A stretch of DNA of 64,000 nucleotides from Vicinamibacteria bacterium (GCA_964291235.2 OZ219816.1:224001-288000); one strand, 5' to 3'. Positions 235-41,274 are shown, counted from the first letter of the stretch. Made by a program: numbers and translations. Notes: a model not told the origin generated them from the sequence alone.

Positions 235-1256
235 GTGCCCGCTCCCCTCAGTCTGTTCGACCCGCCAGAAGAGAAGCCACCCGGACTCGACGCCCTCCGC
301 GCGTGGCTGCGAAAGCCTCGACCACGGCTTCGGGGCGTCTGGCTGTGGGTCCGCTTGGTCCTCTCGGGGATCGCAAAGGGATTTCGGTTCCTCAAGAAGC
401 ATTGGCCCGCAGCACGCGAGGGGATCCACAAGCTCGCGGTCGAGAGTGAGAAGGTCGCGCGCGGGGCGATCCGGGTCGGCTACGCCGCCGCGACTTCGGC
501 GGAGGCGTCGTGCGCAGCACGCGAGCCTTGCGAGGGGACGACGGAAAGGTCAGCGGAACCACGGCGAAGGTTCGGCAAGTGGGCCGAGCGGTGCGGGGCT
601 TCGGCGGCCGGTTGACCGAGGGAGGCGCCGGAGCAGCGGCGGCGCTCTCCAGCCTGGCCCGACTGTTCCCCGCCGCGGGCAAACAGGAAGCGAGCGGACT
701 CGGCCTGCTGGACCCACCCGAGGACAGCGAGCCCGGACTCCCCGAGCCTCCGCTGCGACCCCACCACAAACCGGCGGAACCGGATCGCCCGGACCGGCCT
801 TCCAGCCCCGAGGCGCCGCGACCGGCACTCCCGCGGATCCCATCGGAACGACGCTCCGAGCGTCCGGCAGAAACCACGAAACCCGAGACACCGAACGAGC
901 CACCCGCGGCGGCGGCTCCCAAACAGGACCGAGAAGCCCGCTTCAAGGGTCTCCCGGAGTTGTTCATCCCCGAGGCAGCCGCTACGGATGCTCGGCCCCA
1001 CCCGGAAGCTCTGCGCGTACTGATCCTCGACATCTGCCGTGAGCGCGACTGGACCACTCCGGGCGAGCTCGCGCGCTGGTTCGACATGCACCGGCGCAGC
1101 CTCTCCAACCGCTACATCCGCCCGCTCGTGGAGGCCGGCCTGCTGGAGCGGCGCTATCCGGACCGCCCGAACTCTCCCAAGCAGGCGTACCGGACCCGGC
1201 GCGACACGGCGCCGCCGCATCCCGGCACCGTTCCTCCCGCGGCCGCAAAGAGCTGA
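235..1256 (+). CDS. Hypothetical protein with amphipathic N-terminus, Pro-rich linker and C-terminal winged-HTH (Fic-C-terminal-like); apparent frameshift near 500
   Basis: ORFs 235-615 and 510-1256 appear to join. The C-terminus (TPGELARWF...YIRPLVEAGLLERRYPDRPNSPKQAY) is typical of HTH tails of Fic/ATP-binding proteins. Confidence 0.55.
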
Positions 1257-1425
1257 CGCGCCGACCACGAAGTCCATGCACATCGTCGCCGGGGACCTCG
1301 GCCTCGAACACCTCTGGGTCGTCTATCCGGGGGAGCTGGAGTACCCGCTGGGTGACGGGATCACCGCCCTGCCGCTCGCGAGGGTTGCGGGCCTGCCCCT
1401 GTCGCACCCGGACCAGGCCCGGTGA
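1246..1425 (+). pseudogene. 3' remnant of an AAA/DUF4143 ATPase-nuclease gene
   Basis: RADAPTTKSMHIVAGDLGLEHLWVVYPGELEYPL aligns with the C-terminus of 37649-38806 ([35 protein letters not shown]). No 5' part is present. Confidence 0.8.
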
Positions 1426-1482
1426 CAGTCAGCATCCAAAGTCACGGTTCTTTCGACTCGTCGGCCGCATCGCCTCCCGGAA

Positions 1483-1535
1483 CGGCGAAGTAAACCTTCG
1501 CCGCCGCCAGCAACGACGGGTCGAGGAACAGGTCC
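1483..1535 (-). pseudogene. 53-bp diverged fragment of the amidohydrolase gene (copy of 4236-4288)
   Basis: 45/53 identical by hand. Encodes DLFLDPSLLAAAKVYFA versus DLFLNPSLVAAAKDYFA. Confidence 0.85.
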
Positions 1536-2767
1536 TACAGCACCCGCCACCAGGGCGCGGCGAGCACATCGGACGCGACCCAGGAAACCTCGGTTCCTCC
1601 GTGCAGCAGCAGCCCGGGCCGCGCCATCTCGCCGTACTCTGCCTGGAACACCCGCAAACCCGCGGCGTCCCGGAACCGCGGGGTGGTGGTCGCCTTGACT
1701 TCGATAGGCAGCAGCCGGTCCCCGGCTTCCACTACGAAGTCCACTTCCTCGCCCAGCGTGGTGCGCCAATGGAAGACCTCGGCCCGTCCCCGGCCGGCGG
1801 GCCGGGCATCGCGCCAGGCGAGCAGGTCGCCCAGCACGATGTTCTCCAGATGGGCGCCCGAGGGTTCGCCGCCGCTCAGGTGGAGCGCCAGTCCGCCATC
1901 GCACCAAAAGACCTTCGGCGACTTCATGAGCCGCTTCGTGCGGTTCACGCTGTACGCCGGGACGGGGACGAACAGATACGAAGTCTCCAGGAGGTTGAGC
2001 CACCGCCGCACCGTCGGTTGCGGCAACGCGGCGTCCCGCCCCATCCCGGTGTGGTTGGCGAGCTGACCGAGGCGCAGACTGGCGATGCGCATCAACCGCC
2101 GGAAGTCCGGCAGTGCGGTGATTCGGGCCAGCGCCCTCAAGTCGCGCTCGAGGTAGGTGCGCTCGTACCCCTCGAACCAGTCGGCGCGAGTTTCCGGGTC
2201 GTCGAGGTGGAGCGCCGGGGTCGGAAAGCCTCCGCGCCGCGCCAGGCGACGCCAGTCGGCAGGGCGGTCGGGTTGCGAGGCGACCAGTTCCCGCCATTCG
2301 CCCGCGGCCGTAGCGAGGAGGTCTTCCCAGATGCCGCAGCGCCCGCATCCCTCCGTCTCGCCCCGGGTCATGGGCCAGAGCGCGACGTAGCCGGCGCGCC
2401 CCGCGAGCGATTCCGAGACCTGCCGCATGAGCAGCAGGTCGGCGGAGCCCGTGAGAAGAAATTTCCCCGGCCGCCGGTCCGTGTCCACTGCGCGCTTGAC
2501 TGCGAGCAGCAGATCGGGCGCGCGCTGCACCTCGTCGAGAGTGATCGGTCCGCCGCCCGCGAAAAGTGCCCGCGGGTCGCGTCGTGCGGTGTCGAGAGTG
2601 TCGAAGTCGTCCAGCGACCGGTAGTTCCGCGTCCCGCCCCCGATCTCCTGGGCGAGCGTGCTCTTCCCGGTCTGCCGGGCTCCCGTCAGGACCGCGACGG
2701 GCATGGCGGACAGCACCCGCCGCAGGCGCTCCGCCGCCAGTCGGGGAAGGGATGCACGGTCAGTCAT
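1535..2767 (-). CDS. AAA_14 ATPase with DUF4143 and C-terminal PD-(D/E)XK-like domain
   Basis: Walker A GARQTGKST, Walker B ITLDEVQ, LTGS, GGFP, KSPKVFWCD, EVDFV...IEVK. Confidence 0.9.
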   Translation of the reverse strand: MTDRASLPRLAAERLRRVLSAMPVAVLTGARQTGKSTLAQEIGGGTRNYRSLDDFDTLDTARRDPRALFAGGGPITLDEVQRAPDLLLAVKRAVDTDRRPGKFLLTGSADLLLMRQVSESLAGRAGYVALWPMTRGETEGCGRCGIWEDLLATAAGEWRELVASQPDRPADWRRLARRGGFPTPALHLDDPETRADWFEGYERTYLERDLRALARITALPDFRRLMRIASLRLGQLANHTGMGRDAALPQPTVRRWLNLLETSYLFVPVPAYSVNRTKRLMKSPKVFWCDGGLALHLSGGEPSGAHLENIVLGDLLAWRDARPAGRGRAEVFHWRTTLGEEVDFVVEAGDRLLPIEVKATTTPRFRDAAGLRVFQAEYGEMARPGLLLHGGTEVSWVASDVLAAPWWRVL

Positions 2768-2771
2768 GTGG

Positions 2772-2788
2772 TGAATGATATTCATTCA
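2772..2788. promoter_or_regulatory. AT-rich palindrome directly upstream of the ATPase start
   Basis: TGAATGA-tat-TCATTCA. Confidence 0.5.
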
Positions 2789-2904: not shown

Positions 2905-2932
2905 TCATTCTTGAATCTTTGGGGAGAACATC

Positions 2933-4047: not shown

Positions 4048-5628
4048 TCAGTTCTCCTGCCGGACCGTCGGGTACTCGATCCCCAACTGCTCCAGATAGC
4101 TGTCATACCGCTCCGGGTCGTAGTAGAACGGCCGCATGGCCTCTCGGAAGGAGTCCATCCGCTCCTTGTTCAGATGGATGGCTGGAGGGTCGTCATCGCT
4201 GATCAGCGGGCTGTACTGGTGCTCGGCGGTCTGTCCGGCGAAGTAGTCCTTCGCCGCCGCGACCAGTGACGGATTGAGGAACAGGTCCATCAGGGTCATC
4301 GCAATCACGCGCGCCCCGGCGGTCACGCCCTTGTGGGCGATGGGGGTCGCCATAGCCACCGCGTTCGCCCAGTGGTGGCCCGGGCCGCCCGGGATGTTCG
4401 CCGGGTAGCGCATGGTGACGGTGGGGACCTTCCAGGAGATATCCCCGATGTCGTCGGAGAAACCCCCGAGCCGGGGCTCGGGCGCCGGCCCGCCCATCTG
4501 GCCGAGTTCCATGGCGAGACCGCGCTCTTCGACCCCCAGCTCGCGCTGGAGACCGCGGGCGAGCGTCTGGTCGGCCTCGCTCCACTCCGGGAGCCCCACC
4601 CGCTCGATGTTGGCCCACAGCGCCTCGGCGACCGGCTTGTTGAAGTGGCGCGGATACGCGTGGCCCAGGATGCGCCACGACGCCTTGGTCGAGGTCATCG
4701 CGGCCGCCGCCTCGGCCATCGTGTTGCCGAGCTCGTAGAGCTCCTTCATGTGCGGCTGGTCGAGTTCGCGGAAGTAGTACCAAACCGACGCGAGCTGGGG
4801 CACCACGTTGGGCTGATCGCCGCCGTTCGAGATCACGTAGTGCGAACGGTGCGGCAGGCGCAGGTGCTCGCGCTTGACGTTCCAGGCCATGTTCATGATC
4901 TCGACGGCGTCGAGCGCGCTGCGGCCTCTCCACGGCGCCCCCGCGGAGTGCGCGGATTCGCCCTCGAACGTGTATTCCACGGACACGAGGCCGCTGCCCC
5001 TGCCCTGGCCCCAGCTCACCCCGAAGTCGGAGGCCACGTGGGTGAAGATGTTGATGTCGATGTCGTCGAAGTGGCCGGCGCGGATGAACCACGCCTTGGT
5101 GGCGAGCAGTTCCTCCGCGACTCCCGGCCAGATGACGATGGTCCCGGGGATCCCCTCGCGCTCCATGACCTCCTTGGCGGCAAGCGCTCCCACGATGATC
5201 ACCGCCTGACCCGAGTTGTGGCCCTCGCCGTGGCCGGGGGCGCCTTCGACGAGCGGGTCGAGATAGGCGACGCCGGGTTTTTGGGACGCCTTTGGGATGC
5301 CGTCGATGTCGCTGCCGAGCGCGATCACCGGCGAGCCCGAACCCCAGCGCGCCATCCAGGCGGTGGGGATGCCGGCGATCCCTTCCTCGATCTCGAAGCC
5401 GTTGTCGCGGAGCACGTCGGTCAGGTAGCGCGAGGTCTCGACCTCCTGGAAGCCGAGCTCCCCGAAGCTGAAGACGGAGTCCACGATCACCTGGGCCAGC
5501 TTGGCGCGCTCGGCGGCGCCCTGATCGGCGACCGGGCGGAGGGTTTCGAGGTTCTGGGCGGCTGCAGGGGCGACGGCGAACGCCAGCAGGAGTCCCAAAA
5601 GGACGGTGCGTCTGATGAACTGGGACAT
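4048..5628 (-). CDS. Secreted amidohydrolase, peptidase M20/AbgB-like
   Basis: Signal peptide; ELGFQE, GHGEGHN, GVAEE, AHSAGAPWRGRSALDA, SDDIGDISW. Confidence 0.9.
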   Translation of the reverse strand: MSQFIRRTVLLGLLLAFAVAPAAAQNLETLRPVADQGAAERAKLAQVIVDSVFSFGELGFQEVETSRYLTDVLRDNGFEIEEGIAGIPTAWMARWGSGSPVIALGSDIDGIPKASQKPGVAYLDPLVEGAPGHGEGHNSGQAVIIVGALAAKEVMEREGIPGTIVIWPGVAEELLATKAWFIRAGHFDDIDINIFTHVASDFGVSWGQGRGSGLVSVEYTFEGESAHSAGAPWRGRSALDAVEIMNMAWNVKREHLRLPHRSHYVISNGGDQPNVVPQLASVWYYFRELDQPHMKELYELGNTMAEAAAAMTSTKASWRILGHAYPRHFNKPVAEALWANIERVGLPEWSEADQTLARGLQRELGVEERGLAMELGQMGGPAPEPRLGGFSDDIGDISWKVPTVTMRYPANIPGGPGHHWANAVAMATPIAHKGVTAGARVIAMTLMDLFLNPSLVAAAKDYFAGQTAEHQYSPLISDDDPPAIHLNKERMDSFREAMRPFYYDPERYDSYLEQLGIEYPTVRQEN

Positions 5629-5742: not shown

Positions 5743-5849
5743 TGCCGGTCTGGAGACCGGCGCTCCAAGCCCCTGCGCCGTGCGCGGGAGCGGCTATACG
5801 CGATTCCGCTCTCAGTAGGACACGCGCTCGAGTTCCTCCAGATACCCGA
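5743..5849 (-). repeat. Copy of the last 38 bp of the S9 peptidase gene plus its downstream REP-containing flank
   Basis: Aligns with 18862-18966. Encodes GYLEELERVSY* versus GYLEELKGVSH*. Confidence 0.8.
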
Positions 5850-5901
5850 AGCGTTTGAGCGCCGCGAAACGGGTGCGGCCAGCAATACGATTGCCGACAC
5901 G

Positions 5902-6324
5902 ATGAACACCAAGAAGCTGATCTTGGGAACCGCCGCCTATACGGTCTGCACGTTCTCGCTCGCCGTGGGCTGGCATGTGCTGCTCTTCCGGGAGCGATAC
6001 GAATCGTTCGGCTACTTCGAAGGGGAGCCGGACTTTCTGCTCGGTCTGCTGACGATCGTGCTCCAGGGCGTCTTGCTCTCCGCCCTGTTTCCGATGCTGA
6101 AGGCCGAGGGAACCCCGTTGCGGCGGGGGATCCGGTTCGCTCTCATTACCGGCGCCTTCTTCTGGACCTCGCACGTGCTCGCCTTCGTCGCCAAGCAGCA
6201 AGTGCCGGGAGTAGCAACGTTCGTCGGGATGGAAACGGCCTATCTGGTGCTCCAATTCGGGCTGTTCGGCCTGATCATCGGCGCCATCCACGGTGGAGGG
6301 ATTCGGCAAGCGCGTGCCGGCTGA
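5902..6324 (+). CDS. Small four-TM membrane protein
   Basis: MNTKKLILGTAAYTVCTF...; four hydrophobic segments. Confidence 0.75.
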   Translation: MNTKKLILGTAAYTVCTFSLAVGWHVLLFRERYESFGYFEGEPDFLLGLLTIVLQGVLLSALFPMLKAEGTPLRRGIRFALITGAFFWTSHVLAFVAKQQVPGVATFVGMETAYLVLQFGLFGLIIGAIHGGGIRQARAG

Positions 6325-6354
6325 AGCCGGCGGTCCAAGCCTGCGCGCCGCCTT

Positions 6355-6568
6355 TCAGTGCGACACGCCCTCGAGTTCCTCCAGGTACCCGACCCCCGGC
6401 AGCTCGGTGTCCTTTCCCAGGAGATAGAAGTCGAAGAACGCCTTCATGTCGGCGAGCATCTCCATCCTGTTCTCGAAGCCCCTGACGTAGAAGTTCTCGC
6501 CCGCGTAGGCCCTTGTAGCGGGCGGGCTTGTAGAGGCGCCGCAGCTCCCGGAAGAATCCGGTCATCTG
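6355..6568 (-). pseudogene. Displaced 3' end (~70 codons) of the S9 peptidase gene
   Basis: Matches 18929-19141 with about 14 substitutions and 1 indel (~93%), largely synonymous. Confidence 0.92.
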
Positions 6569-6699
6569 GTGGCGGGGAGGTTCACGACGCTCGAAATTGA
6601 TCGCGTGGTTCAAGCATCGAAGGCCCGTCGGTATCATCGGGAACCGATGGTCGGCCAAGGCCGAAGCCGTCCGTAGCACCACAAACGAGGACAGTCGCA

Positions 6700-8106
6700 G
6701 TGAAAACAAGAACATCGGACAGAGGCGAGAATGGCGACCCGAGTGGCCATCGCGCCGCGCTTTTTCCGGCGCTTTCGGAAGGATCGAAGGAAAAGCGTGC
6801 CGTATCGATCCTACTCGCGTGCATGGAACAGGTGCCGGAATTCGCCAAGAGTCTGCTCCACGGGCAGGGGGTTCGATTCGGCAAGAAGAGCAGATTGCAG
6901 GCCTGGACTGAAGTCGGACCGGTCGGCAAGAAGGGTGGGGAGCGGCCGGACGGGAGAATAGAAGTCGAAAGCACACGCGGACAACGGTGGGTCGCCCTGC
7001 TTGAGGCAAAGATCGGCAAGGCCGTGCTGAATGACAGTCAGATCGCGGCCTATCTGGCCGAAAGCCGTTCCGTCCGCGCGAATGCGTTGATCACGATCTC
7101 AAACGAATTCGCAGTCCTCGCGAACCATCACCCGACGTACCGCGGAAAGACTCCCAAAGGCATCGCGCTGCTGCATTGGTCCTGGAGTTCAATCTTGACA
7201 AAGTGCCGTCTTCTGACGGACGGCGGCGAGATTGAGGATCGCGACCACCGCTGGGTCATCGCGCACCTAGTTCGGTTCCTCAGTCACCCGAGCACCGGCG
7301 TTGTCCGCTTCGACCGGATGCCGTCGAGCTGGAAGGAAACCGCCCGAGCAGTCTCCGCCGGCGCCGGAGTCAGGAAAGGCAGCGACGCAGCCCTGGAGGT
7401 CGCGGCGGGCTGGACCCAAGAAGCCCGGGACCTCGGACTGCAACTCACCCGTCTCCTTAAGCAGCCAGTACCCGTGAAGCTCAGCCGCCTGGAACGCGAA
7501 GATCCAAGGGCATTCATGAACCGGGTGTTGGACGGACTCTGCAACAACCAGGTGCTGGAGGTGGAATACCTGATTCCCGACGGTGTGTCAGGGCTTACCG
7601 TCCGGGCGGATCTCAGAGCTAAGACCCTCACGACCAGCATGACGGTGGGGGCCCCGGAAGACCGCAAGACCGCCAAGGCGCGTGTCAATTGGCTGCTGCG
7701 TCAACTCGTCAAGACAGAAGAAGAAGAGAGTGTCCACGTCAAAGCCGTCTACGGGCGAAGGGAGGACATCCAGCACTCACTGGCCGCGGTGCGGGAGAAC
7801 CCGGAGGCAATAACCAAGGATGATGTGAAGATTTGCCCGAGAAGGTTCGAGGTGAAACTGATCGGTGAACTCGGGCGAAAGATGGAGAGCCCAAAGTCCT
7901 TCATTCAGGCGCTCGAGAAACACGTCCCCGACTTCTACACGGAAGTGGGGCAGCACCTGCGACCTTGGGTGCCCAGCGCGCCAAGGGTCGCCTCTGAGCC
8001 CAAACAGGCTGCAGAGAAGCAGGGAGGGACTGAGGCTGCGACTTCGAAGCCCGAAGACACGGACACAGGAAGGGCTGGAATGGACGAGCAACAGCCTCAT
8101 CCCTAG
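6700..8106 (+). CDS. PD-(D/E)XK nuclease-superfamily protein
   Basis: RPDGRIEV...WVALLEAKIG motif in a 468-aa ORF. Confidence 0.65.
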   Translation: MKTRTSDRGENGDPSGHRAALFPALSEGSKEKRAVSILLACMEQVPEFAKSLLHGQGVRFGKKSRLQAWTEVGPVGKKGGERPDGRIEVESTRGQRWVALLEAKIGKAVLNDSQIAAYLAESRSVRANALITISNEFAVLANHHPTYRGKTPKGIALLHWSWSSILTKCRLLTDGGEIEDRDHRWVIAHLVRFLSHPSTGVVRFDRMPSSWKETARAVSAGAGVRKGSDAALEVAAGWTQEARDLGLQLTRLLKQPVPVKLSRLEREDPRAFMNRVLDGLCNNQVLEVEYLIPDGVSGLTVRADLRAKTLTTSMTVGAPEDRKTAKARVNWLLRQLVKTEEEESVHVKAVYGRREDIQHSLAAVRENPEAITKDDVKICPRRFEVKLIGELGRKMESPKSFIQALEKHVPDFYTEVGQHLRPWVPSAPRVASEPKQAAEKQGGTEAATSKPEDTDTGRAGMDEQQPHP

Positions 8107-8300
8107 TGGCGCTCGGACCAGTCCTGTTGGAGGCGTCGCCCAGAACGCCGAAAGGCTGGCAACCGGGCGATTTCGGGTCCTGCCGGTCCCGACGGCGGTA
8201 TCGCCCTCACCCCCAGTTTCGATGGACCCGATCCGGAGCTAACTCCCTAGCCTAAACAGTGGCAGACTTGGGGCTAGGCCAAGGTGAGCGCAGGCGATAG

Positions 8301-8663
8301 TCAGCCGATCTTATCGACCCGTCGCGTCTTCGGGTTCAACCTCCAACCGAAGTGTGTGAGTTTCACGTAGTCGTCCGCCCTGGCCTCTTCTCGTATCTTC
8401 TCTCGGACGACTACCACCAGACCCTTGTCTTCCAGTTCAGCCACTACGCGATGAGTCGTCTTGATTTCGATGCTTCCAGACAGGCACAGCAGCCTGCGGC
8501 CTTTGTCGGCCAATGTTGGTGAATCGATGAAGACGCCATTGTCCGTGGTGTCTGACTGCATCCGTTCGAGTACAGCCTTGGCACCGTCTGACAAGGGAAG
8601 TGGTCGAAACTTCCTCCAGAGGTAGTACAGAGCACGAAACGCCAGTCCAATCGCAGCGTCCAC
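8301..8663 (-). CDS. Hypothetical protein with N-terminal hydrophobic segment and wHTH-like C-terminus
   Basis: 120-aa ORF; LSDGAKAVL...VAELEDKGLV...KLTHFG pattern. Confidence 0.5.
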   Translation of the reverse strand: MDAAIGLAFRALYYLWRKFRPLPLSDGAKAVLERMQSDTTDNGVFIDSPTLADKGRRLLCLSGSIEIKTTHRVVAELEDKGLVVVVREKIREEARADDYVKLTHFGWRLNPKTRRVDKIG

Positions 8664-8994
8664 TCTTCACTCCCCCCTTCCGAATTCCGAGGATTCTGAC
8701 TCCTCGCCCTTCTCGTCCTGGTCGGAGGGGGCGTCAGTGGGGGTGGCGGTCATTGGGGTGGTTTCGATGGGAGAAATCACATCACGCCAGAGTGACAGGA
8801 ACTGCCATCCCGGCCCAGCCGTCTGATTGCCGCCCATGATTGCAAAACCGGGAGCACCGTGGACGGCAGAGGCGTTGCCGGTTCGCGCCCTATCCAGCCC
8901 CACAGCTATACGCGCTCCGCGGCCCTGCGGACCGCAATCACCACGTTCCATCTGATTCCGTGCAGATCCGTTGTGTGCTCCTAAATCTGCACTA

Positions 8995-9007
8995 TATCAA
9001 CGGCTTA
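8995..9007 (+). promoter_or_regulatory. IHF-consensus site upstream of the integrase
   Basis: TATCAACGGCTTA matches WATCAANNNNTTR exactly. Confidence 0.65.
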
Positions 9008-9121
9008 TCGTGCTACAATGTTCCATCCGAGGACGATCATAACCCGCTCGTTCCCGCCATTTATCTGATATCCACTTGGTAGTTGTAGGAACCGACAACC
9101 CTCCTCAGGAACGAAAAAGCC

Positions 9122-10300
9122 ATGATGGAACGACCTTACCGACTCTCCGCACGCTTCGTCGCCACCATTGAGCAGCCCGGACGCTACGGCGACGGCCGCG
9201 GCTCCGGCGGCCTCTCACTCCTCGTCAAGCATACGACCCGAGGGCACCTGGCCAAGTCCTGGGCGCAGCGCATCAGCGTGGACGGCCGCCAGCGCAATCT
9301 CGGACTGGGGTCCTGGCCCCACGTCAGCTTGGCCGAGGCCCGCGAGAAGTGCGCCCTGAATCTCGCCGCCCGGCGGCGCGGGGAGCTGGTGACCGGCCGC
9401 AAGCGGACGGTCCCCACCTTCGAGGAAGCCGTCGAGAAGGTGATCGCGGTGCACCGGGCAGGCTGGAAGGACGGCGGGAGGCAGGAGAAGCTGGTGCGGG
9501 CGAGCCTCCGGGACCACGCCATGCCGAAGCTCGGCGGGAGGCCGGTGGACCGGATCAACACGTCGGACGTGATGGCGGTGCTGCTGCCCATCTGGAATGA
9601 GAAGCGGGTGACGGCGCGTCGCGTTCGCCAGCGGATCGGGGCGGTGATGCGGTGGGCGGTGGCGCAGGGCTACCGGGAGGACAACCCGGCGGGGGAGGCC
9701 ATCGGGGCGGCGCTGCCCAGGAATGGCTTCCGGCCGCAGCACCACCGGGCGCTCCCGTACGCGGAGGTTGCCGGTGCCATCGAGAAGGTGCGGGGATCGG
9801 GGGCCTATCCCGCGACCGTGTTGGCGTTCGAGTTCCTGGTGCTGACGGCGTGCCGGAGCGGGGAGGTGCGCGGCGCGCTGTGGGAGGAGATGGACCTTGA
9901 GCGGCAGGAGTGGCGGATTCCGCCGGAGCGGATGAAGACAGGACGGGAGCACCGGGTTCCGCTGTCCGGGCGGGCGCTGGCGGTGGTTCGGGAGGCGCGG
10001 AGACTCGCGGACGGCTCGGGACTGGTGTTCCCATCGGCGCGTGGCGGCCCGCTGTCCGAGGTGGCGATCCCGAAGATGGTCCGGGATCTGGAGATCGCGG
10101 CGGTGCCTCACGGGTTCCGGTCGAGCTTCCGTGACTGGGCGGCGGAGTGTTCCGACGCCCCGCGGGAGGTTTGCGAACTGGCGCTGGCGCACGTGAACAC
10201 GAACAGCATCGAGGCGGCCTACCGGCGGACCGACATGTTCGAGCGGCGGCGGTCGCTCATGGAGCAGTGGTCCGCGTTCCTGGCCGGGACGAGTTGCTAG
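9122..10300 (+). CDS. Tyrosine integrase, P4/IntA-like with N-terminal arm-binding domain
   Basis: GRYGDG..GL, LGSWPHVSLAEAR; catalytic TACRSGE, MKT, HGFR, LAH, AAY. Confidence 0.95.
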   Translation: MMERPYRLSARFVATIEQPGRYGDGRGSGGLSLLVKHTTRGHLAKSWAQRISVDGRQRNLGLGSWPHVSLAEAREKCALNLAARRRGELVTGRKRTVPTFEEAVEKVIAVHRAGWKDGGRQEKLVRASLRDHAMPKLGGRPVDRINTSDVMAVLLPIWNEKRVTARRVRQRIGAVMRWAVAQGYREDNPAGEAIGAALPRNGFRPQHHRALPYAEVAGAIEKVRGSGAYPATVLAFEFLVLTACRSGEVRGALWEEMDLERQEWRIPPERMKTGREHRVPLSGRALAVVREARRLADGSGLVFPSARGGPLSEVAIPKMVRDLEIAAVPHGFRSSFRDWAAECSDAPREVCELALAHVNTNSIEAAYRRTDMFERRRSLMEQWSAFLAGTSC

Positions 10301-10343
10301 CATCTGATCGGCAGGAGCCATTCGACGGAGGCGGGAACCAGAC

Positions 10344-10625
10344 GTGATGCCTGACCCTGGAGGGTCGCCGATACCGGGATGGAGAATCACCGCCATCATC
10401 AGACGAACGGCGGAGGGTGCTGTCCGGGTCGTCGATATCAGCCCCAAGGGCTTCCTCCGCAGGGAGCACGTGGGGAAGTCCTACGCCGACGAGGACGTTG
10501 CAAGGTCAGCGATTTCGGAATCGTTCCGCGCGTGGTCGGGGAACACTGCTCTACCTGTCAGCGTCGCGATCGTATACAACCATGAACGGCCCGATCCGAG
10601 TGTGGCTGTGACCCGCGACGACTAA
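10344..10625 (+). CDS. Hypothetical protein
   Basis: 93-aa ORF after the integrase with protein-like composition. Confidence 0.4.
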   Translation: MMPDPGGSPIPGWRITAIIRRTAEGAVRVVDISPKGFLRREHVGKSYADEDVARSAISESFRAWSGNTALPVSVAIVYNHERPDPSVAVTRDD

Positions 10626-11505
10626 CCCGCGCTGGAAGAGGAAGCGAATCCGCGGAGGCAACCAGTGCGGTGACTGCACCCGACGAGCGCTGGACGGAGC
10701 CGATTGCGTTGGCCCGCGTCAGGGGCGGGCGCTGGAGGGGATGGCCTGGGGCAAAGGGAACGGCGGACGAGGCGCGGCGGATCGGGCGGGCGAACCAGAT
10801 CGAGGAGGCGGCGGGGCGATCCCGCCGGGCTGATACGGAGTGGTGCCATCGCTCCCCGCTGGCCGCTCCCCCAACCCTTCTGCATGACGCAGCGAAGCGG
10901 CGGTGGACCGTGCGGGCCCGAGTAGCGCGCCGGGCCGTTCCGGCTGTCACGTGATCGGCAGACGGCGCCGCGGTCCGAGGTCGCCGCCACCCCTGGGGAG
11001 GACGCTGTGGTTCCTCCTCCGTGTTGTCATCAAGTACATCGTGATCAATGTTGGCCTCGGGCTCCGCTGGCTGTGGCGGGAGTTTCTGAAGAACCGTGAC
11101 CGTTGGTAGTCCCCGAAAGAGCCGGAAGGCTGCGAGCGCCGGACACGACGCATGGAGGCGCTGAGTACCTGAACTGAGCACGTGGCTCCCCTGGGCTGCG
11201 TTCGGCGCGGTCGCCGCAATCAATGGGTACTTCCTGGTGATGTTCGCGGTGGGCTACGTGCAGTCACTTCGGCGCCGTCGCTGATGAAGCGCCATCGTCC
11301 GCTCTGTGGCGTCGGGCGACGCGCGGGTGTCCGCGCCACGAAGTGGCGTTGCGGCGGCTCACGGAGGCGATGTCTTCCGCGAAGCTGCTCCCGCCGCCGC
11401 TCTGCATCGATCTGTTCCGGGAGTCGCGGCCGTGGTTGCCGAGCAGACGGCGAGGCGACGCTGCCCGAACACCCGTGGGTCGTCGGCTAACATGCGGCCG
11501 GCACG

Positions 11506-11781
11506 GTGAAGGCCAACCTCGTCCATCGGGCGATGGAGGCGACGACTCTGGAGTCTCCCGCCGCGCAGGACGCCGTGGAGGCGCTGTTCGAATCCGTTGC
11601 TTCCGCGCTCGTGCGCGGTGACCGCGTGGTGCTTCGGCGGTTCGGGGTTTTCCACACGCGCCCCCGCAAGACGGGGAAGGCGCGGAATCCACGCACCGGC
11701 GAGCCGGCGGGAATTCCCCCGGGACGCGTCGTGCGTTTCCGTCCCGCGCCGGGTCGGCGGCACTCGCCCGGCGATGGTTGA
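11506..11781 (+). CDS. HU/IHF family DNA-binding protein
   Basis: GDRVVLRRFGVF..RPRK...ARNPRTGE...RVVRFRP. Confidence 0.85.
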   Translation: MKANLVHRAMEATTLESPAAQDAVEALFESVASALVRGDRVVLRRFGVFHTRPRKTGKARNPRTGEPAGIPPGRVVRFRPAPGRRHSPGDG

Positions 11782-11909
11782 GGGAGCGCGGCTCCCCGGA
11801 TAAACGGCCGGAGGGCCGTTCGTTTGCGGCCTATCGCCCGATAGGCTGGTAACGCTCGTCGGGAGACTCGCGCCACCGTTCGGGGCCTCAGCGGAGGCAC
11901 CCGAGATGA

Positions 11910-11985
11910 CCACCAGAGCGCCAGAGCCGGCAGGCCACTTGAGGGTAGGCCAGCCTACACAGTGTGCCCACACTGTGCTCTGGCG
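11910..11985 (-). other. ColE1-type origin of transfer (nic predicted between 11950 and 11949)
   Basis: Minus strand GTGTAGGCTGG^CCTA resembles ColE1 GTGTATACTGG^CTTA. Adjacent IR CACAGTGT-gccc-ACACTGTG. Lies just upstream of mobC. Confidence 0.75.
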
Positions 11986-12086
11986 AGGGGATGCTGCGCC
12001 CCCCTTCGAACCCCCGGCATCCGCCGCTGCGGGAGCAGCGGGCGGACGGGGGACGCCGTCCCCCGAACCCCCTGGCCGGTGCGCTC

Positions 12087-12425
12087 ATGGCTGAGCGCCG
12101 CTCGGTGGAGGTCCACCTCCGCGTGTCGCCGGCCGAGCGCGCCGCCTGGAAGGCCAAGGCGGCGGCGGCCGGCCTGTCGCTCTCCGCGCTGCTGCGGCAG
12201 GCGATGGCGCGGACGCAGAGCTGGACCGCGCCGGCAATGGCCGTCGAGCGCGAGCGCAGCCGCCAGATCGCGCGCATCGGCAACAACCTCAACCAGCTCG
12301 CGCGCTGGGCGAACACCCACGCCTCCCCCATCGAGGCGGTCCGGGTGACCGACCGGCTGAGGGCGGTCGAGCGGGCGCTGCGCGCCCTGGCCGTGCCTGG
12401 CCGAGAGGACGGCGGTGCACATTAA
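12087..12425 (+). CDS. mobC: Relaxosome accessory protein MobC/MbeC
   Basis: RHH-like N-terminus and signature RIGNNLNQLARWAN. Confidence 0.92.
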   Translation: MAERRSVEVHLRVSPAERAAWKAKAAAAGLSLSALLRQAMARTQSWTAPAMAVERERSRQIARIGNNLNQLARWANTHASPIEAVRVTDRLRAVERALRALAVPGREDGGAH

Positions 12426-13977
12426 GTTCCTCCGTCACGGCGGCGGCTCGGCCCGGGCGGCGGCCGACTATCTCGTCGGCGAACGGGACTCCGCCGGACG
12501 GGTGCGTCCGGGCGTCGAGGTTCTGCGCGGTGAACCGGACCACGTTGCCGCGGTCGCCGACTCGCTGGAGTTCGGCCGCGGGTACACCTCCGCCGTGATC
12601 TCGTGGGCGCCGGAGGACCGGCCCACCGACGAGCAGATCGGGGCCGTCCTCGACGAGTTCGAGAAGACGGCCTGGGCGGGACTGGAGCCGGACCGCTACG
12701 CCTGGACGGCGGTCCTGCACCGCGAGCACGGGGACGGGGTCCACGTGCACGTCCTCACCGCCCGCTGCGACCTGGAGACAGGCCGCAGCCTGAACATCGC
12801 GCCGCCCGGCTGGCAGAAGACGTTCGATCCACTGCGCGACGCCTTCAACCACCAGCACGGCTGGAGCCGCCCCGACGACCCGGCGCGCGCCCGGGCGCAC
12901 CAGCCCGGCCATCGCGCCTACATCGAGGCGGCGAAGCTGCGGGCCGGCCTCGAGCACGAAGCCGGCCCTCGCGAGTTGATCCGTGACTACCTGCTGCAGC
13001 GGGTCGAGCACGGCGCGGTGCGGAACCGCGCCGACGTGGTCGCCTCCCTGAAGGAGGCCGGCTTCGAGGTGCCCCGCCAGGGCAAGGACTACCTGACCGC
13101 CCGCGATCCGGACAGCGGGACGCGGTTCCGGCTGAAAGGAGCGCTGTATGAGCACAACTTCGAACCCGAACGACTTGAGCGCCCGCGTGAAGAGCCGGAT
13201 GGAAGCCGACCGCCGGCAGATCGAGGCGGCGACGACGAGCGAGGTGCGGCAGCTTGGCGCGAACTTGCGCGCCGTCGTGAGCGACGAGCTGCGTACCATC
13301 GAAGCCGATACGGGGGCGACGGTCGCACGGGTGCGGTGGATGCTGGTGAACGCGTGGCTGCGGCCCCTGGTGGCCGGCCTGGTCCTATTCCTCGGGATCA
13401 GTGGCGGGAGCTGGGGGCTGATGCAATGGCTGTCGGTGAGCATCCAGAGCCAGATCGAAACCCTGGCGGTGCTGGAAGTGCGGATCGACCAGGCGCGCGA
13501 GACGCTGGCCGAAATCGAGGACACGACGTGGGGGGTGACGCTGCGGGAGCTCGACGGGGAGCGGTTCGTGGTGCTGGCGGACGGGACGCTGGCCAATCCG
13601 CACTGGACCGTGGGCGGGCGGCCTGCCTTGAAGCTCTTGAGCGAGTGAGGGAGTTGTATGAGCGAGCTAGAGGGACAGTCGACAGTCGCCTTCGAGAGGC
13701 TGTGCGCGCATTTCGAGCTGGGGCAGCGGCGGCAAGCCGAGCAGATCGAGGCCTTGCAGCAGCAAGTCGAGCGGCTGAGCGCGGAGAACGAAGCCTTGCG
13801 GCAGCGAACCGAGCGGCAGGACGCCGAGAGCGCAATCTGGCGGCAGCAGTTCGAGCGGCTCGACGGGCAGGTGACCGGCTTGGCCCAGGACTACAGGAGG
13901 CTCGCCGGGACGTTGCGCGGGCAGTGGAGGTGATGCGGCGGCGCGGACGTACGCGGGATCATGGTCTGGGCCGCTGA
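12415..13977 (+). CDS. mobA: MbeA-like (MOBP5-related) relaxase
   Basis: MHIKF..HG.GS...DYL, EVLRG.P, YTSAVISW, AGLEPDRY, DLETGRSLNIAPP, PDDPAR. Confidence 0.92.
   Translation: MHIKFLRHGGGSARAAADYLVGERDSAGRVRPGVEVLRGEPDHVAAVADSLEFGRGYTSAVISWAPEDRPTDEQIGAVLDEFEKTAWAGLEPDRYAWTAVLHREHGDGVHVHVLTARCDLETGRSLNIAPPGWQKTFDPLRDAFNHQHGWSRPDDPARARAHQPGHRAYIEAAKLRAGLEHEAGPRELIRDYLLQRVEHGAVRNRADVVASLKEAGFEVPRQGKDYLTARDPDSGTRFRLKGALYEHNFEPERLERPREEPDGSRPPADRGGDDERGAAAWRELARRRERRAAYHRSRYGGDGRTGAVDAGERVAAAPGGRPGPIPRDQWRELGADAMAVGEHPEPDRNPGGAGSADRPGARDAGRNRGHDVGGDAAGARRGAVRGAGGRDAGQSALDRGRAACLEALERVRELYERARGTVDSRLREAVRAFRAGAAAASRADRGLAAASRAAERGERSLAAANRAAGRRERNLAAAVRAARRAGDRLGPGLQEARRDVARAVEVMRRRGRTRDHGLGR
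13148..13648 (+). CDS. mobB: MbeB-like mobilization protein overprinted within the relaxase
   Basis: Coiled N-terminus, one TM segment and TWGV motif; position inside mbeA as in ColE1. Confidence 0.75.
   Translation: MSTTSNPNDLSARVKSRMEADRRQIEAATTSEVRQLGANLRAVVSDELRTIEADTGATVARVRWMLVNAWLRPLVAGLVLFLGISGGSWGLMQWLSVSIQSQIETLAVLEVRIDQARETLAEIEDTTWGVTLRELDGERFVVLADGTLANPHWTVGGRPALKLLSE
13658..13933 (+). CDS. mobD: MbeD-like coiled-coil (entry-exclusion) protein overprinted within the relaxase
   Basis: MSELE...QQQVERLSAENEAL...QVTGL; ColE1 gene order. Confidence 0.7.
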   Translation: MSELEGQSTVAFERLCAHFELGQRRQAEQIEALQQQVERLSAENEALRQRTERQDAESAIWRQQFERLDGQVTGLAQDYRRLAGTLRGQWR

Positions 13978-14338
13978 CGCTTGTTGACGGCTTTGACCAG
14001 TACGGGGGATTCCTGCGCTGGACTTGGCAGGCGTGATCCTGTATGGGACACTAGGATGTGGCTGTAGTGGCCGATGTCTCAATCAGGAATAGCAGGGCAG
14101 CGTCGGGCTTGTTGCCGACCGCACTTCGATGGGGCAATCCTGCCGGGAACGGCGTTGCGGGTGACGCGAGAAATGGGGTGACGGGATTCGGCGCGCGGGG
14201 ACGCGATGCTTCTGTTCTTGCCAGTCTTGGCAGTCTGTTGAACAGAGGAACTCCATCATGCCCCAAAGATCGCTCTTCCAGGCGGGGTGTCACACTGACC
14301 ATCCATCGGTTTGGGCACCAATTCTCGCGGGTAGGGCG

Positions 14339-15866: not shown

Positions 15867-15868
15867 GG

Positions 15869-17083: not shown

Positions 17084-17228
17084 GCCAGCGGCATGCCCGC
17101 GCAATTGACATCCGTCGCAGAGCGCCGTTGATGGCCACACCGGTCTGCTCGCGGCCGCGGTGGTCCCAAAGGCAGAAGGGGAGGTCGGCGACTCAAGGGT
17201 TCCTTCGGTTCCCCTCGCATCCTCGCAT

Positions 17229-32683: not shown

Positions 32684-32693
32684 GGTGGGTCGC

Positions 32694-37587: not shown

Positions 37588-37625
37588 TCCTGCGGCCGCC
37601 AGACCGCGATCTCGCGTCCGTGGCG
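37588..37625 (-). pseudogene. 38-bp diverged fragment of the LVIVD gene (copy of 39362-39399)
   Basis: 31/38 identical. Encodes RHGREIAVWRPQD versus RQGREIAVFWPQD. Confidence 0.65.
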
Positions 37626-37648
37626 CGGGGGGCCGGAAGCGCCCCGCA

Positions 37649-38806
37649 TCAAAGGCCTTCGGCCACCAGTCGTTCGAGCCCGATGGCCTCCACGTCTTCG
37701 TGCAGCGGGAAGCGGCCGTCGCCGGGGAAGATGACGAAGAGCCGCTCAAGCTTGAGGTCGGTGAGCGCCGAATGCATGGAGCGCGTCATTTGCGGGGCGC
37801 TGGTGCGCTTGAACTCGAACCCCCAGCGACGGCCGCCGTCGAGTGCCAGCAAATCCAGCTCCGCGCCTCCGTGTGTACCCCAGTAGTAGCAATTCTCCCA
37901 GGCGAATCCGAGGCGATGGACGACCTCGTGGAGGGCGAAACCCTCCCAGGAGAGGCCCGACTTCGGGTGGCCGAGCAGCGCCTCGGAAGATTCGAGGCCC
38001 AGGAGCGCGTGCAGGAGGCCGGAATCGGCCAGGTACACCTTCGGCGCCTTGACCTGCCGCTTCTTCAGGTTTTGGAACCAGGGCACCAGACGCCGCACCA
38101 CCAGCGCATCCACGAGAGCGTCGAGGTAGGTCGCGACCGTCGGAGCGGTGACACCGAGGGCGCGAGCCAGCTCGGCGTGATTCCAGACGCTCCCGTGATA
38201 GTGCGCCACCATCGTCCAGAAGCGCCGCATGGTGGCCGCCGGAACCATGACGCCCAGTTGCGGGAGGTCCCGCTCCAGGAAGGTCCGGATGAAGGTGGCG
38301 CGCCAGCGCAGACTCCGGCGGTCATCCACGGCGAAGAACGAGCGGGGAAACCCACCCCGAAGCCAGAGCCGCTCCGCGACTCCGGAACCTGTCCCGACCT
38401 CGCCAAACCGGAACGGCGGAAGTTCGTGGTACGCGATGCGCCCCGCCAGGCTCTCGGACGACTGGCGCAGCAGCGCCGGGCTCGCACTTCCGAGGATGAG
38501 GAAGCGGGCCGGGTTGTCGGGGCGGTCCACGAGCACCCGAAGGAGACCGAAGATCTCCTCATGGCGTTGCACCTCGTCAACGACGACCAGGCCGCGAAGA
38601 GGCGCCAGGGCGAGCTTGGCGTCCGCCAGTCGGCGCTCGTGGGTCGGGTCCTCCAGGTCGAAGACGGTCACCGGTCCCGGCAGGTCCGCGATCAGTCGGC
38701 GGGCGAGGGTTGTCTTGCCCACCTGGCGCGCCCCCACGATCGCGACCACCGGGAAGTCTTCGAGGAGTTCCCGGACCTGCGCCTCGTGTTCCCGGCGAAC
38801 GATCAT
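37649..38806 (-). CDS. AAA_14 ATPase with DUF4143 and C-terminal nuclease-like domain
   Basis: GARQVGKTT, VVDEVQ, LGSAS, GGFP, KAPKVYLADSG, ELDL...FEFK. Confidence 0.92.
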   Translation of the reverse strand: MIVRREHEAQVRELLEDFPVVAIVGARQVGKTTLARRLIADLPGPVTVFDLEDPTHERRLADAKLALAPLRGLVVVDEVQRHEEIFGLLRVLVDRPDNPARFLILGSASPALLRQSSESLAGRIAYHELPPFRFGEVGTGSGVAERLWLRGGFPRSFFAVDDRRSLRWRATFIRTFLERDLPQLGVMVPAATMRRFWTMVAHYHGSVWNHAELARALGVTAPTVATYLDALVDALVVRRLVPWFQNLKKRQVKAPKVYLADSGLLHALLGLESSEALLGHPKSGLSWEGFALHEVVHRLGFAWENCYYWGTHGGAELDLLALDGGRRWGFEFKRTSAPQMTRSMHSALTDLKLERLFVIFPGDGRFPLHEDVEAIGLERLVAEGL

Positions 38807-38819
38807 GGCGTGATGATAG

Positions 38820-38852
38820 TTGAAAATCAAAAATAGAGTTTTTGATTTTCAA
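38820..38852. promoter_or_regulatory. Perfect AT-rich inverted repeat upstream of the ATPase
   Basis: TTGAAAATCAAAAA-tagag-TTTTTGATTTTCAA (14-bp arms). Confidence 0.75.
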
Positions 38853-39011
38853 GATTCGATGCGACCCCTGTCGGTAGAGGTCGCTCCTGGTTCGCCGGAG
38901 ATTTCCACCGCCGCAGGCCGCAGTTGGATGGCCCCGGTTTCCTTGGCGCAGCGGCGGGAGCGGGCACCTGCGTTTGGGTCCGGCCCCGACGGCGCGAGCG
39001 CTGGAGCCAAA

Positions 39012-39216
39012 GGGGGGAAAGTGTGAAAGGGGGGCTCGCCCCCCGTTCACAAAACGACTCCTCCAATCGAAACTCGCCGAAGCGCGCCGCGCGCGCGAGG
39101 GAGTTGCGATTGCCGACGCGTAGCGTCGGGCGGTTCGGGAGCGGGGCACCGCGATCGGTCCCGGCGGCGCAACGGCACTGGCGCCGGAGTCCGGCCCCGC
39201 TCCCGGACCGCTCGGA
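39012..39216. repeat. Third, diverged copy of the multi-hairpin element
   Basis: GGGGGAAAGTGTGAAAGGGGGGC..CCCCC.TTCACAAAA, ATCGAAACTC...GAGTTGCGAT, tail GAGTCCGGCCCC..CCCGGACCGCTC. Confidence 0.7.
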
Positions 39217-41274
39217 CTACTGCGGTTCGCCCAGGTTCACCGGCTCCGGGTCCACCAGCTTCACGGCCCAGAGGCCCGAGTGGTGGTCGGCGACGAAGAT
39301 GTGGTCCTTGTAGGGCTGCGGCCCCCAGACCATCGCGGCGTTCGGGATGAAGCTCTCCGGATCCTGCGGCCAGAAGACCGCGATCTCACGCCCCTGCCGG
39401 TAGAGGTCGCCCCGCATTTCGCCGGAAATGTCCACCACCCGCAGGCCGCCGTTGTAATAGCCGATGTAGAGGATGTCGTCCTCCACCCACAGGTTGTGGG
39501 TCCCCGCCTCCGGCACCTGGTAGCGCGCCACCTCGCGGGGCTCTTCCCACTCGTCCCACTCGTAGATGTGGATCCAGCCGGCGGCCCGGTCGGGGGTGTT
39601 CGACTCTCCGATCGTCTGGTAGGGGAACGCCTCGTCGCCGCCGATCATCAGGAACTTTCCGGTGGACTGGCTCCGGTAGGGATAGGCCGCGTGGTTCCAA
39701 CCGCTGGGATAACGGGTCCGCCCCAACTCGACGGGGTTGTTGGGAGCGCCGCCCTGGCCGCCGCCGCCCACGTCCACCGCGACGATCCCGTCGTCCCAGT
39801 TGGACGAATACGCGATCCCGTCCACCACCCAGACGTCATGGATGGAGTGGCCCGGGGTGTCCAGTTCGAAGCGGCCGACCCGGTAGGGGTTCTCCGGATC
39901 CTCGGCGTTCAGGATGTCGAAGCGGCGTCCCGCCGAGAGCGCGTAGATGTGGTCCTCGGCGATGAAGACGTTGTGGACGCCGCCGGTGAGCTGGTCGTCG
40001 TAGCGGGCGATCACCTGCACTCCGCTCTGCGGATCGCTCACGTCCAGGATCACCAGACCGTTCTTCCGGTTCGAGGCGCCCTCCCGGCTGATCACGCAGA
40101 ACTTGCCGTCTTCCGAGACCTTCACGTCGTTGACGGTCCGGGCGTCCACCCGCACCGTATCGATGAGAGCCATCGCCGCCGGATCGGTGACGTCCCAGAA
40201 GTAGGCGTGGCCGTCGGCGCCCCAGGTGCCGGTCACCGCGTAGTCCCGGCCGTCGTTGCCCTCCCAGACCCAGAGGTCCGAGGTGTACCGGTCCCGGACC
40301 GGCGCCTGCCCCACGATCTCGACGTCCTTCCGCACCTTCCGCGACACCACCGCCACGGTGGCGCTCGCCGACGTGGTGAAACCGTCGGCGATGACGGTGT
40401 GCGTTCCCGAACGCTCGGCGACGAAGGCGCCGTCCGCATCCACCTGGCCGATGGCGCCGGGCGCCACGATCCCGTCCGCCGGAATGCCGAGGGTCGCGAA
40501 CTGGATCGGGTAGTCCGGCACCGCGTTTCCGGAGGCGTCGGTGGCCTCCGCCTCGAAAAACACCACGTCGCCGGTGCGCACGGACTCGTCCGGCGCCCCG
40601 TTCAGCATGATCGAGGCGACCGGGTTGGCCAATACCTCGATGGAGACGTCGCTCGACGCCTCTTCCGCCGAGACGGTCAGGGTCGTCCGGCCGGCGCTCG
40701 TCAGGACCAGCACTCCGAGTTCGTCCACGCTCGCCACCGACGAATCAGCGGTGCTCCAGCCTATTTCCACGTCGCTCCGGGCAGCGCCCGACGTGTCCGT
40801 AACCGCCGTCCGGAGTCCGATCTCGGTCCCCGCGTAGAGATGGCCGGGAAGGTTCGTGACCTCGACCGACGCGACCGGCGGGTTCGGGATGGTGACCGGA
40901 ATCTCGACCATGACCGCGGGTTCGGCGCGGCGGTCGGTGTGCTCCGGATTCCGGGGCACCATGGCGATCAGGGTGTGTTCCCCCGGCCCGAACGCCTCCA
41001 CCATGCCGGCGGGGTTCACACCCACCGAGCGCCGCTGGCGCGAGAAGAACACCACCGTGCGTTCCATCGCGTTGCCGTCGGCGTCGCGCACCTCGGCCTC
41101 GAGAGTGGCGGTCGCCCCCACCTCGAGCGTCAGTTCACTCGGGGTGATGACGAGTTCGGTGGGTTCAGGGCCGCTGGCTTCCTCCGCTTCCTCCTGCGCA
41201 AACGCGGGAAAGGCGAGGAGCAGCAGCGCCGCGGCGGCGACGGAGGTGAGATGAAAGCGGGAATTTCGGGTCAT
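39217..41274 (-). CDS. Secreted Ig-like + LVIVD-repeat beta-propeller protein, paralogue 1
   Basis: Signal peptide, Big_2-like WS.ADSSVASV, LVILDVSDP, GLRVVDIS, GLWAV. Confidence 0.88.
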   Translation of the reverse strand: MTRNSRFHLTSVAAAALLLLAFPAFAQEEAEEASGPEPTELVITPSELTLEVGATATLEAEVRDADGNAMERTVVFFSRQRRSVGVNPAGMVEAFGPGEHTLIAMVPRNPEHTDRRAEPAVMVEIPVTIPNPPVASVEVTNLPGHLYAGTEIGLRTAVTDTSGAARSDVEIGWSTADSSVASVDELGVLVLTSAGRTTLTVSAEEASSDVSIEVLANPVASIMLNGAPDESVRTGDVVFFEAEATDASGNAVPDYPIQFATLGIPADGIVAPGAIGQVDADGAFVAERSGTHTVIADGFTTSASATVAVVSRKVRKDVEIVGQAPVRDRYTSDLWVWEGNDGRDYAVTGTWGADGHAYFWDVTDPAAMALIDTVRVDARTVNDVKVSEDGKFCVISREGASNRKNGLVILDVSDPQSGVQVIARYDDQLTGGVHNVFIAEDHIYALSAGRRFDILNAEDPENPYRVGRFELDTPGHSIHDVWVVDGIAYSSNWDDGIVAVDVGGGGQGGAPNNPVELGRTRYPSGWNHAAYPYRSQSTGKFLMIGGDEAFPYQTIGESNTPDRAAGWIHIYEWDEWEEPREVARYQVPEAGTHNLWVEDDILYIGYYNGGLRVVDISGEMRGDLYRQGREIAVFWPQDPESFIPNAAMVWGPQPYKDHIFVADHHSGLWAVKLVDPEPVNLGEPQ

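Follow-up and report, generated by a model that had tools for sequence, protein, structure and literature searches.

Copies of gene 3' ends accompany toxin-antitoxin and defence-type cargo behind conserved genes in a Vicinamibacteria genome

The window analysed here is a stretch of 64,000 nucleotides (nt) from the metagenome-assembled genome (MAG) of a Vicinamibacteria bacterium (G000:C2:224001-288000, about 69% G+C); the genome, G000, comprises 3.45 Mb in two contigs and is an estimated 90% complete. We compared it with 15 genomes of the same genus, one per species (G001-G015), and searched the window for duplications by self-BLAST. MAGs with S9 peptidases 88-93% identical carry the labels Candidatus Marinacidobacterium, Vicinamibacteria or Acidobacteriota. 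Behind three conserved genes of the window, encoding an M20 peptidase, an S9 peptidase and an LVIVD/Big_2 protein, we found cargo genes accompanied by diverged copies of the 3' region of the gene itself, here called relics. Four junctions with an intact gene, cargo and then a diverged fragment of that gene had been described in an earlier note on this DNA, and all four are present, as seen in the window self-BLAST, a restricted search at the LVIVD gene and the comparison with G008.

The S9 peptidase gene (18929..21118, minus strand; gene calls and family match) is intact and is followed by two partial copies. Copy 2 (6311..6568, minus strand) holds the last 213 nt of the gene and downstream sequence, and 6342-6568 matches 18914-19141 with 91.3% identity over 229 nt (E 1.7e-86 in the window self-BLAST); this duplication is real beyond doubt. 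The fragments had been called in frame, which does not apply to copy 2, where a 1-nt insertion shifts the frame. Copy 3 (5743..5849, minus strand) comprises the last 38 nt of the coding sequence and 67 nt downstream, and is 83.2% identical over 107 nt to 18862-18966 (E 5.5e-23). Part of its downstream sequence overlaps a dispersed repeat resembling repetitive extragenic palindromes (REP), and positions 5720-5860, used as a query, matched 106 places in the genome. This REP-like family (5721-5766, 18861-18928 and 21050-21121 in the window; about 100 genome matches, in intergenic regions and arrays) raises the similarity around copy 3. The two partial copies are separated by a small insert (5850..6310) that contains most of an open reading frame (ORF; 5677-6324, plus strand) without family assignment, so that copy 1 is followed in turn by the island, copy 2, the small insert and copy 3.

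The island between copies 1 and 2 (6569-18861) is lower in GC than its surroundings. Its larger part (8914..18861) is an integrative mobilizable element that encodes a P4-type tyrosine integrase (9122-10300; Arm-DNA-bind_3, Phage_int_M and Phage_integrase), NikA/MobC (11964-12425), a relaxase (12415-13977), Dcm (14258-15418), Vsr (15345-15866) and EcoRII (15734-17083), all assigned by family match. The remainder (6569..8913) holds two ORFs without family match (6700-8106, plus strand, and 8301-8663, minus strand) and is not common to related integrase elements. In seven of the eight relatives' loci the S9 and M20 genes lie 0.95-3.9 kb apart and the island is absent; the exception, G006, has an S9 relic of its own that corresponds to a different stretch of the gene (266-403 nt before the stop). 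One contig of sequencing run X1 joins 6349 to 18849 via 32 other letters, with only 22 letters on one side, and the island-specific bins are uncovered in that run, at most a weak hint at an island-free relative.

Next along the window lies the M20 peptidase gene (4048..5628, minus strand; gene calls and family match), which had been described as an amidohydrolase. The fragment reported for it is short but borne out by the relatives: a relic of 17 codons (DLFLDPSLLAAAKVYFA; 1483..1535, minus strand) is 84.9% identical over 53 nt to 4236-4288 (E 2e-9), a segment that starts 241 nt before the M20 stop. It differs from the M20 gene of G005 at five of 53 nt (90.6%, counted from the alignment), closer than the 85% to the resident gene. 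Regular-expression matches to the relic in the seven relatives' loci with an M20 gene are confined to those genes, bar one unrelated match (in L003). The relic abuts the stop codon of a cargo gene, here ATPase2 (1535..2785, minus strand), which has AAA_14 and DUF4143 domains (Pfam). No M20 fragment was found on the 5' side of ATPase2, and homology to G008 resumes at 2833. The region from there to 3961, comprising an AHSA1/SRPBCC gene (2915-3574, plus strand; family match) and its flanks, was found among the relatives only in G008, at 95% identity, and the adjoining M20 gene is just 84% identical to that of G008, which suggests that the AHSA1 region was recently exchanged between lineages.

An orphan ATPase 3' end beside the relic (1214..1425, plus strand), proposed as a fifth case of gene-end replacement, is ruled out as such. 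It is 41.7% identical over 48 amino acids to another ATPase of the window (ATPase3, below; E 3e-6), and three of the eight relatives' loci (G004, G014 and G013) have at the same place a protein 77-83% identical over 47 amino acids, with ATPase-like sequence continuing upstream. The orphan end is what a deletion of the 5' part has left here of an AAA_14-DUF4143 ATPase gene (ATPase1) that is resident at this place and kept in those relatives.

The third site follows the LVIVD/Big_2 gene (39217..41496, minus strand; gene calls and family match), the first of four tandem paralogues (39217-49940, minus strand; self-BLAST and gene map). Two pieces of it lie on either side of ATPase3: a proximal one (38865..38926, minus strand), 82.8% identical over 64 nt to 39391-39454 (E 7e-9), and a distal one (37588..37625, minus strand), 81.6% identical over 38 nt to 39362-39399. 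The distal piece is missing from the window-wide list and reaches E 1.3e-5 in the restricted search only. We accept it because G008 holds one unbroken LVIVD relic of 126 nt (84% identical to the gene, E 1e-37) that spans both pieces and lacks the ATPase. The fragment described earlier is therefore present, not as a single closing fragment but as one of two pieces, which overlap by 9 nt of the resident gene. Since the relic is contiguous in G008 without the ATPase, a 1243-nt ATPase3 cassette (37626..38868, minus strand; ORF 37649-38848, AAA_14 and DUF4143 by Pfam, with an AT-rich palindrome upstream) was inserted into an older LVIVD relic, which thus predates the present cargo. The site is empty in G007, G011 and G014, where the gene is followed by 330-510 nt without a relic. 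In G008, G005, G003, G010 and G012, and partly in G006 and G015, a conserved gene pair occupies the place behind the LVIVD gene; read from their translations, the two genes may be AbiEi/AbiEii-like.

The claim that the layout recurs at unrelated genes was borne out across the genome. For 1723 confident ORFs (72% of the genome, from a crude gene caller), the last 300 nt were compared by BLASTN with the 20 kb downstream, and matches in direct orientation outside called genes were counted. Such copies were found for 39, 29 and 19 genes at thresholds of at least 40, 50 and 60 bits, respectively, against 13, 10 and 7 for the last 300 nt searched upstream in direct orientation, 11, 10 and 10 for mid-gene segments searched downstream and 16, 14 and 12 for those searched upstream, both in direct orientation, and 1-9 in the inverted controls (1-16 genes in the eight controls together). 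Downstream relics of 3' ends are over-represented about three times. The corresponding test with the first 300 nt of each gene (31, 21 and 19 upstream in direct orientation versus 21, 14 and 8 inverted) is noisier, because the starts of stop-to-stop ORFs include upstream repeat arrays.

We surveyed the cargo at 14 relic loci; about 12 further loci, several of them in obvious paralogue arrays, lie outside this survey. Toxin-antitoxin (TA), defence or mobile genes were present at eight of the 14, metabolic genes at three, and nothing or an unassigned ORF at the other three. In G000, an FGE-sulfatase gene is followed by 550 nt of cargo with an NTP_transf_2 gene (MNT-like nucleotidyltransferase) and a 168-nt relic (95% identical), a GntP permease gene by DUF2442/DUF4160 cargo and a 131-nt relic (94%), a thioredoxin-like gene by a PIN-toxin pair (VapBC) and a 79-nt relic (91%), an NHL-repeat gene by another PIN-toxin pair (VapBC) and a 35-nt relic (94%), and an efflux-pump-like gene (read from its translation) by a DUF4143 ATPase and a 98-nt relic (83%). 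In G004 (L009, G004:C1:28000-47900, positions 7185-9465), a ParDE pair is enclosed by two copies of a glycosyltransferase gene, 703 nt each and 93.9% identical. This locus adjoins an ATPase2 orthologue and a second DUF4143-type gene.

Relatives with empty sites, as the earlier note had anticipated, were also found beyond the S9-M20 and LVIVD loci: the thioredoxin-like site is empty in G003, G006 and G004, where the downstream flank lies within about 47 nt of the gene, and the FGE site is empty in G009. In six of the nine stop-reaching relics examined, the similarity of the copies stops exactly at the stop codon, so that the cargo begins right behind the stop of the resident gene. The 5' boundary of the relic shifts from species to species. 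For the same target and cargo end, the FGE relic begins 256 nt before the stop in G001, 168 in G000 and 79 in G004; the thioredoxin-like relic measures 79 nt in G000 versus 428-190 in G013, and the S9 relic begins 213 nt before the stop in G000 versus 403-266 in G006. These shifts fit a long and variable duplication, not a fixed core, although secondary deletions could mimic variable crossover points. Consistent with the earlier report that there is no shared attachment (att) core, no common motif or core was visible by eye at 15 junctions.

The S9 site bears on where the ends came from. Copies 1 and 2 are 91% identical to each other, and each is 94.4-94.8% identical to genes of other species; the flank downstream of copy 1 resembles the native flank in G014, and that of copy 2 resembles those in G004, G001 and G013. 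As each copy is nearer to other species than to its partner and the flanks are of different species types, at least one S9 copy was imported from another lineage. To this extent the proposal that 3' ends are imported holds; the sharp switch in identity expected of chimeric genes was not seen at the breakpoints when the S9 and M20 genes were compared with seven to eight relatives in sliding windows. Identities of gene segments do not favour either S9 copy as the imported one.

The presence of gene-end copies is confirmed. We propose, as an even bet, that selfish or defence-type cargo is inserted behind conserved genes with a long, variable 3' duplication in a process driven by homology. The window would then contain three flexible hot spots, each at or just after the stop of the M20, S9 or LVIVD gene. 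Entry of the cargo there would duplicate the 3' region of the target gene over a long and variable length, and the distal copy would be left to decay. Homologous recombination of one repeat with the other might loop out the unit of repeat, cargo and repeat. A single crossover within the same gene end could then bring the released unit into another genome, or double crossovers in the flanks could spread it. Imported 3' ends could in this way replace resident ones or sit beside them without a recombinase encoded by the element, and later deletions and cassette swaps would blur the scars. An integrase-free mechanism of this kind is plausible.

Several observations weigh against the homology-driven proposal. 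In addition to the smooth identity profiles of S9 and M20, the relics of M20 and LVIVD are internal pieces without a stop, for which extra deletions must be assumed, and LVIVD belongs to a four-copy tandem family, so that its relic could be a leftover paralogue. At the FGE and thioredoxin-like sites the relic is the more decayed copy, and the identities of the segments do not single out an imported one. No circular or excised form was seen, and the crude gene calling weakens the genome-wide test. The remaining points concern integrases. The P4-type integrase of the S9 cargo belongs to a family much expanded in the genus; G000 has nine matches and G012 as many as 37, and identities of 76-92% are common. 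In G012, an ATPase3 orthologue is flanked on one side by tRNA-Ser(TGA) and on the other by what we read as a partial tRNA-Ser copy reaching from the anticodon arm to the 3' end. The islet so formed measures 1.5 kb (L023, G012:C74:17000-24000, about 2548-4230), and an integrase match lies about 1.5 kb past the tRNAs. In G000, the relic of the efflux-pump-like gene is next to a tRNA-Ser and integrase-like sequence. Given these neighbours, site-specific recombination could account for part or all of the layout, and the independence from integrases claimed in the earlier note is not established.

The corresponding alternative, a serious rival that we nevertheless think less likely than not, is that all the duplications are attL/attR scars of a tyrosine integrase whose attP carries the end of the target gene. 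The small cargos would then be islands that have decayed, or else islets mobilized by the expanded integrase family, in trans or in cis. Prophage e14 in icd is such a case of integrase-mediated gene-end replacement, in which the element supplies a substitute 3' end and the old partial copy is stranded at the far end. The S9 site resembles this in form, and its cargo contains an integrase. In G008, a 92% identical integrase element starts right at the stop of a different protein gene, a site that is empty in G000. Tandem accretion is also known: in cis-mobilizable elements (CIMEs), for example at the 3' end of fda in Streptococcus thermophilus, att-flanked units without a recombinase lie beside an integrase element, and the series of three S9 copies separated by the island and the small insert resembles this arrangement.

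Other features of the junctions fit poorly with integrase scars. As the earlier note had stated, three of the four window cargos contain no recombinase, and the TA cargos lack an integrase too. Among the matches listed, no member of the expanded family falls at the hot spots of FGE, of the thioredoxin-like gene or of S9 in G006. No direct repeat was detected around the G008 element in a word-size-7 search (E <= 0.01), and no convincing long direct repeats were seen at the four further integrase copies in G000. The distance from the integrase gene of the window is 2.5 kb to S9 copy 2 and 8.6 kb to copy 1. In the window, homology to four related elements does not begin until 8914-8993, so that 6569-8913 separates the element from copy 2; the module boundary at 8914 is 2.3 kb off the S9 relic, and the module is adjacent to neither S9 copy, unlike what e14 would lead one to expect. 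Also unlike e14, most cargos here have no integrase, and the crossover positions vary among species for the same target and cargo (S9, FGE and thioredoxin-like). Compared with the short att cores of CIMEs, the repeats here are much longer and much more divergent, and no att core can be defined at the 15 junctions. The integrase of the S9 cargo may have made the S9 duplication. Searches of the 64-kb window for tRNA, transfer-messenger RNA and other RNA targets found none. Several members of the integrase family have an in-frame TAG. Near the far end of the element, a conserved segment of about 320 nt (17228-17550), with repeated 25-nt motifs that also occur at 18385-18411 and 18689-18712, recurs in a second element of G000 (90%) and in the G008 element (83%); it may be the element's end or a region of the origin-of-transfer (oriT) type.

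A more specific, recombinase-free version of the homology-driven proposal strikes us as unlikely. Here TA and defence cassettes would act as 'gene-end hitchhikers', carrying the last 80-700 nt of a host gene up to its stop, entering by a single crossover without breaking the gene and looping out via the repeats, and each AAA_14-DUF4143 ATPase would perhaps be a single-gene cassette that is autonomous and helps to insert itself. The latter idea was raised because homology between these cassettes spans only the palindrome to the stop and orthologues occupy different sites in sister species, and because one of them splits an older relic cleanly (with the 9-nt overlap) and three of seven stand in relic contexts. 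The homology of the ATPase3 cassette runs only from its AT-rich upstream palindrome to its own stop codon in four contexts. In G004 and G009, the ATPase2 orthologues (78-79% nt identity) occupy a different locus, and the homology is confined to 1534-2798; G008 has a 69% relative at a place where G000 shows an intergenic gap of 117 nt. Three of the seven DUF4143 genes of G000 stand in the gene-end relic layout. The PADLOC model for the single-gene candidate defence system PDC-S01 (PDLC04790) matches the two window ATPases and C1:1107255-1108529 with E-values of 3.6e-108, 5.3e-82 and 2.3e-68, so that the AAA_14-DUF4143 ATPases are candidates for this system with a putative role in defence. An excerpt of PMC3424549 tabulates DUF4143 under the PD-(D/E)XK fold and gives its function as unknown. 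Near-perfect AT-rich palindromes precede both window ATPases (38815-38847 and 2776-2792) in a genome that is otherwise 69% G+C; the other DUF4143 genes of G000 have AT-rich upstream regions, one with a similar palindrome. The palindrome is probably an operator or promoter that travels with the cassette.

It is quite improbable that the fragments are simply dead paralogues from local tandem duplication and deletion, with cargo merely gathering in unstable intergenic regions. LVIVD does form a tandem array, several genome-wide matches (genes 127, 162, 1138/1139 and 1569) belong to arrays of paralogues or repeats, and the ATPase3 cassette entered a pre-existing relic. Against this, M20, FGE, GntP, thioredoxin-like and NHL genes have no other copy nearby, the mid-gene controls are about three times below the 3'-end test, the relics accompany cargo and are missing at empty sites, and the S9 copies are each nearer to other species than to one another. 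Chimeric joins in the assembly, which the earlier note had named as a possible source of the duplications, can hardly be the explanation, for although the MAG consists of two contigs at 90% estimated completeness and repeats can mislead assemblers, short-read contigs of three runs (X6-X8, possibly from the source sample and so not independent) bridge 1425-1535, 6568/6569 and 18861-18929 without differences, and, as stronger evidence, cargo-plus-relic structures recur in the assemblies of G002 (ATPase3), G001 and G004 (FGE) and G013 (thioredoxin-like).

The homology-driven proposal has a close precedent in insertion with long target duplication, which was reportedly first described by Nobusato et al. 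in 2000. Excerpts of Furuta, Abe and Kobayashi 2010 (PMC2853133) describe restriction-modification (RM) insertions with long target duplications in several phyla, with repeats of 46-423 bp and no other mobile element; the repeats are single-copy in the genome without the insert, and some overlap the 3' end of a gene. The life cycle proposed there for the RM unit consists of amplification through the repeats and then release (PMC2853133, same excerpts). The general route of gene capture proposed in the earlier note is therefore not a new one, at least as far as these excerpts describe it for RM systems. They define such insertions by direct repeats of more than 30 bp that are single-copy in a relative without the insert, an insert of less than 20 kb without other mobile-element genes, and the presence of both R and M genes (PMC2853133). 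In our data, repeats with an empty counterpart were found at S9 (229 nt; seven of eight loci), at the thioredoxin-like gene (79 nt; three relatives) and at FGE (168 nt; one relative), and the 53 nt of the M20 relic likewise have, one unrelated match aside, no second copy outside the M20 genes in the relatives' loci. The M20, LVIVD, FGE, GntP, thioredoxin-like and NHL cargos are shorter than 20 kb and free of mobile genes, whereas the S9 cargo contains an integrase and a relaxase. Only the S9 cargo has EcoRII, Dcm and Vsr; the others carry TA-type genes or PDC-S01 ATPases.

The gene-end scars are thus best filed as a variant of insertion with long target duplication, not as a strict member of the class. 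They share with the RM cases selfish units that, the S9 cargo apart, lack mobility genes, and long, variable direct repeats that are single-copy in the empty genome. They differ in that the cargo consists mostly of VapBC, ParDE, MNT-like, DUF4160/DUF2442, AbiE and PDC-S01 ATPase genes, that the repeats are diverged (82-95%) and often truncated, that there is a marked bias to the 3' ends of genes with the repeat often ending exactly at the stop codon, and that the host is a high-GC Acidobacteriota genus. Homology-facilitated illegitimate recombination, reportedly described by de Vries and Wackernagel (2002) and by Prudhomme et al. (2002), likewise captures foreign DNA without an integrase beside one homologous anchor; unlike the layout seen here, it usually gives insertion with deletion. 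Since both flanks are homologous between these species and a double crossover needs no duplication, it would explain the origin of the scars at best, not their spread.

Among the titles and abstract openings searched, with subscription journals outside the scope, none describes the gene-end layout for TA modules or PDC-S01 ATPases. A ParDE-like module of Microcystis has flanking repeats of 152 bp that are not a gene-end copy, according to an excerpt of its description (PMC7935541). The scar is already known for restriction systems, and what is added here is its extension to TA modules, AbiE and single-gene PDC-S01 ATPases. If these scars are the traces of a general way in for addiction and defence modules, right behind conserved genes that stay unbroken, this would explain the spread of small recombinase-less defence genes among related genomes, hot spots at gene ends and the exchange of C-termini of housekeeping genes between lineages. 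A 3'-end relic downstream of an intact gene is also a practical marker for accessory cargo in MAGs, and here it pointed to the poorly known PDC-S01 ATPases as typical cargo.

Other features of the window include smpB (21119-21640, minus strand; gene map), directly beyond the S9 gene. An S9 peptidase paralogue (44% amino acid identity) at 34796-36711 is matched in two overlapping frames (35066-35788 and 35740-36681) and is probably frameshifted or a pseudogene. Finally, a dispersed repeat of about 135 nt with an internal palindrome, resembling miniature inverted-repeat transposable elements, lies at 39012-39147, 29205-29347 and 29455-29595, and each of the 16 genus genomes carries very many copies of it.

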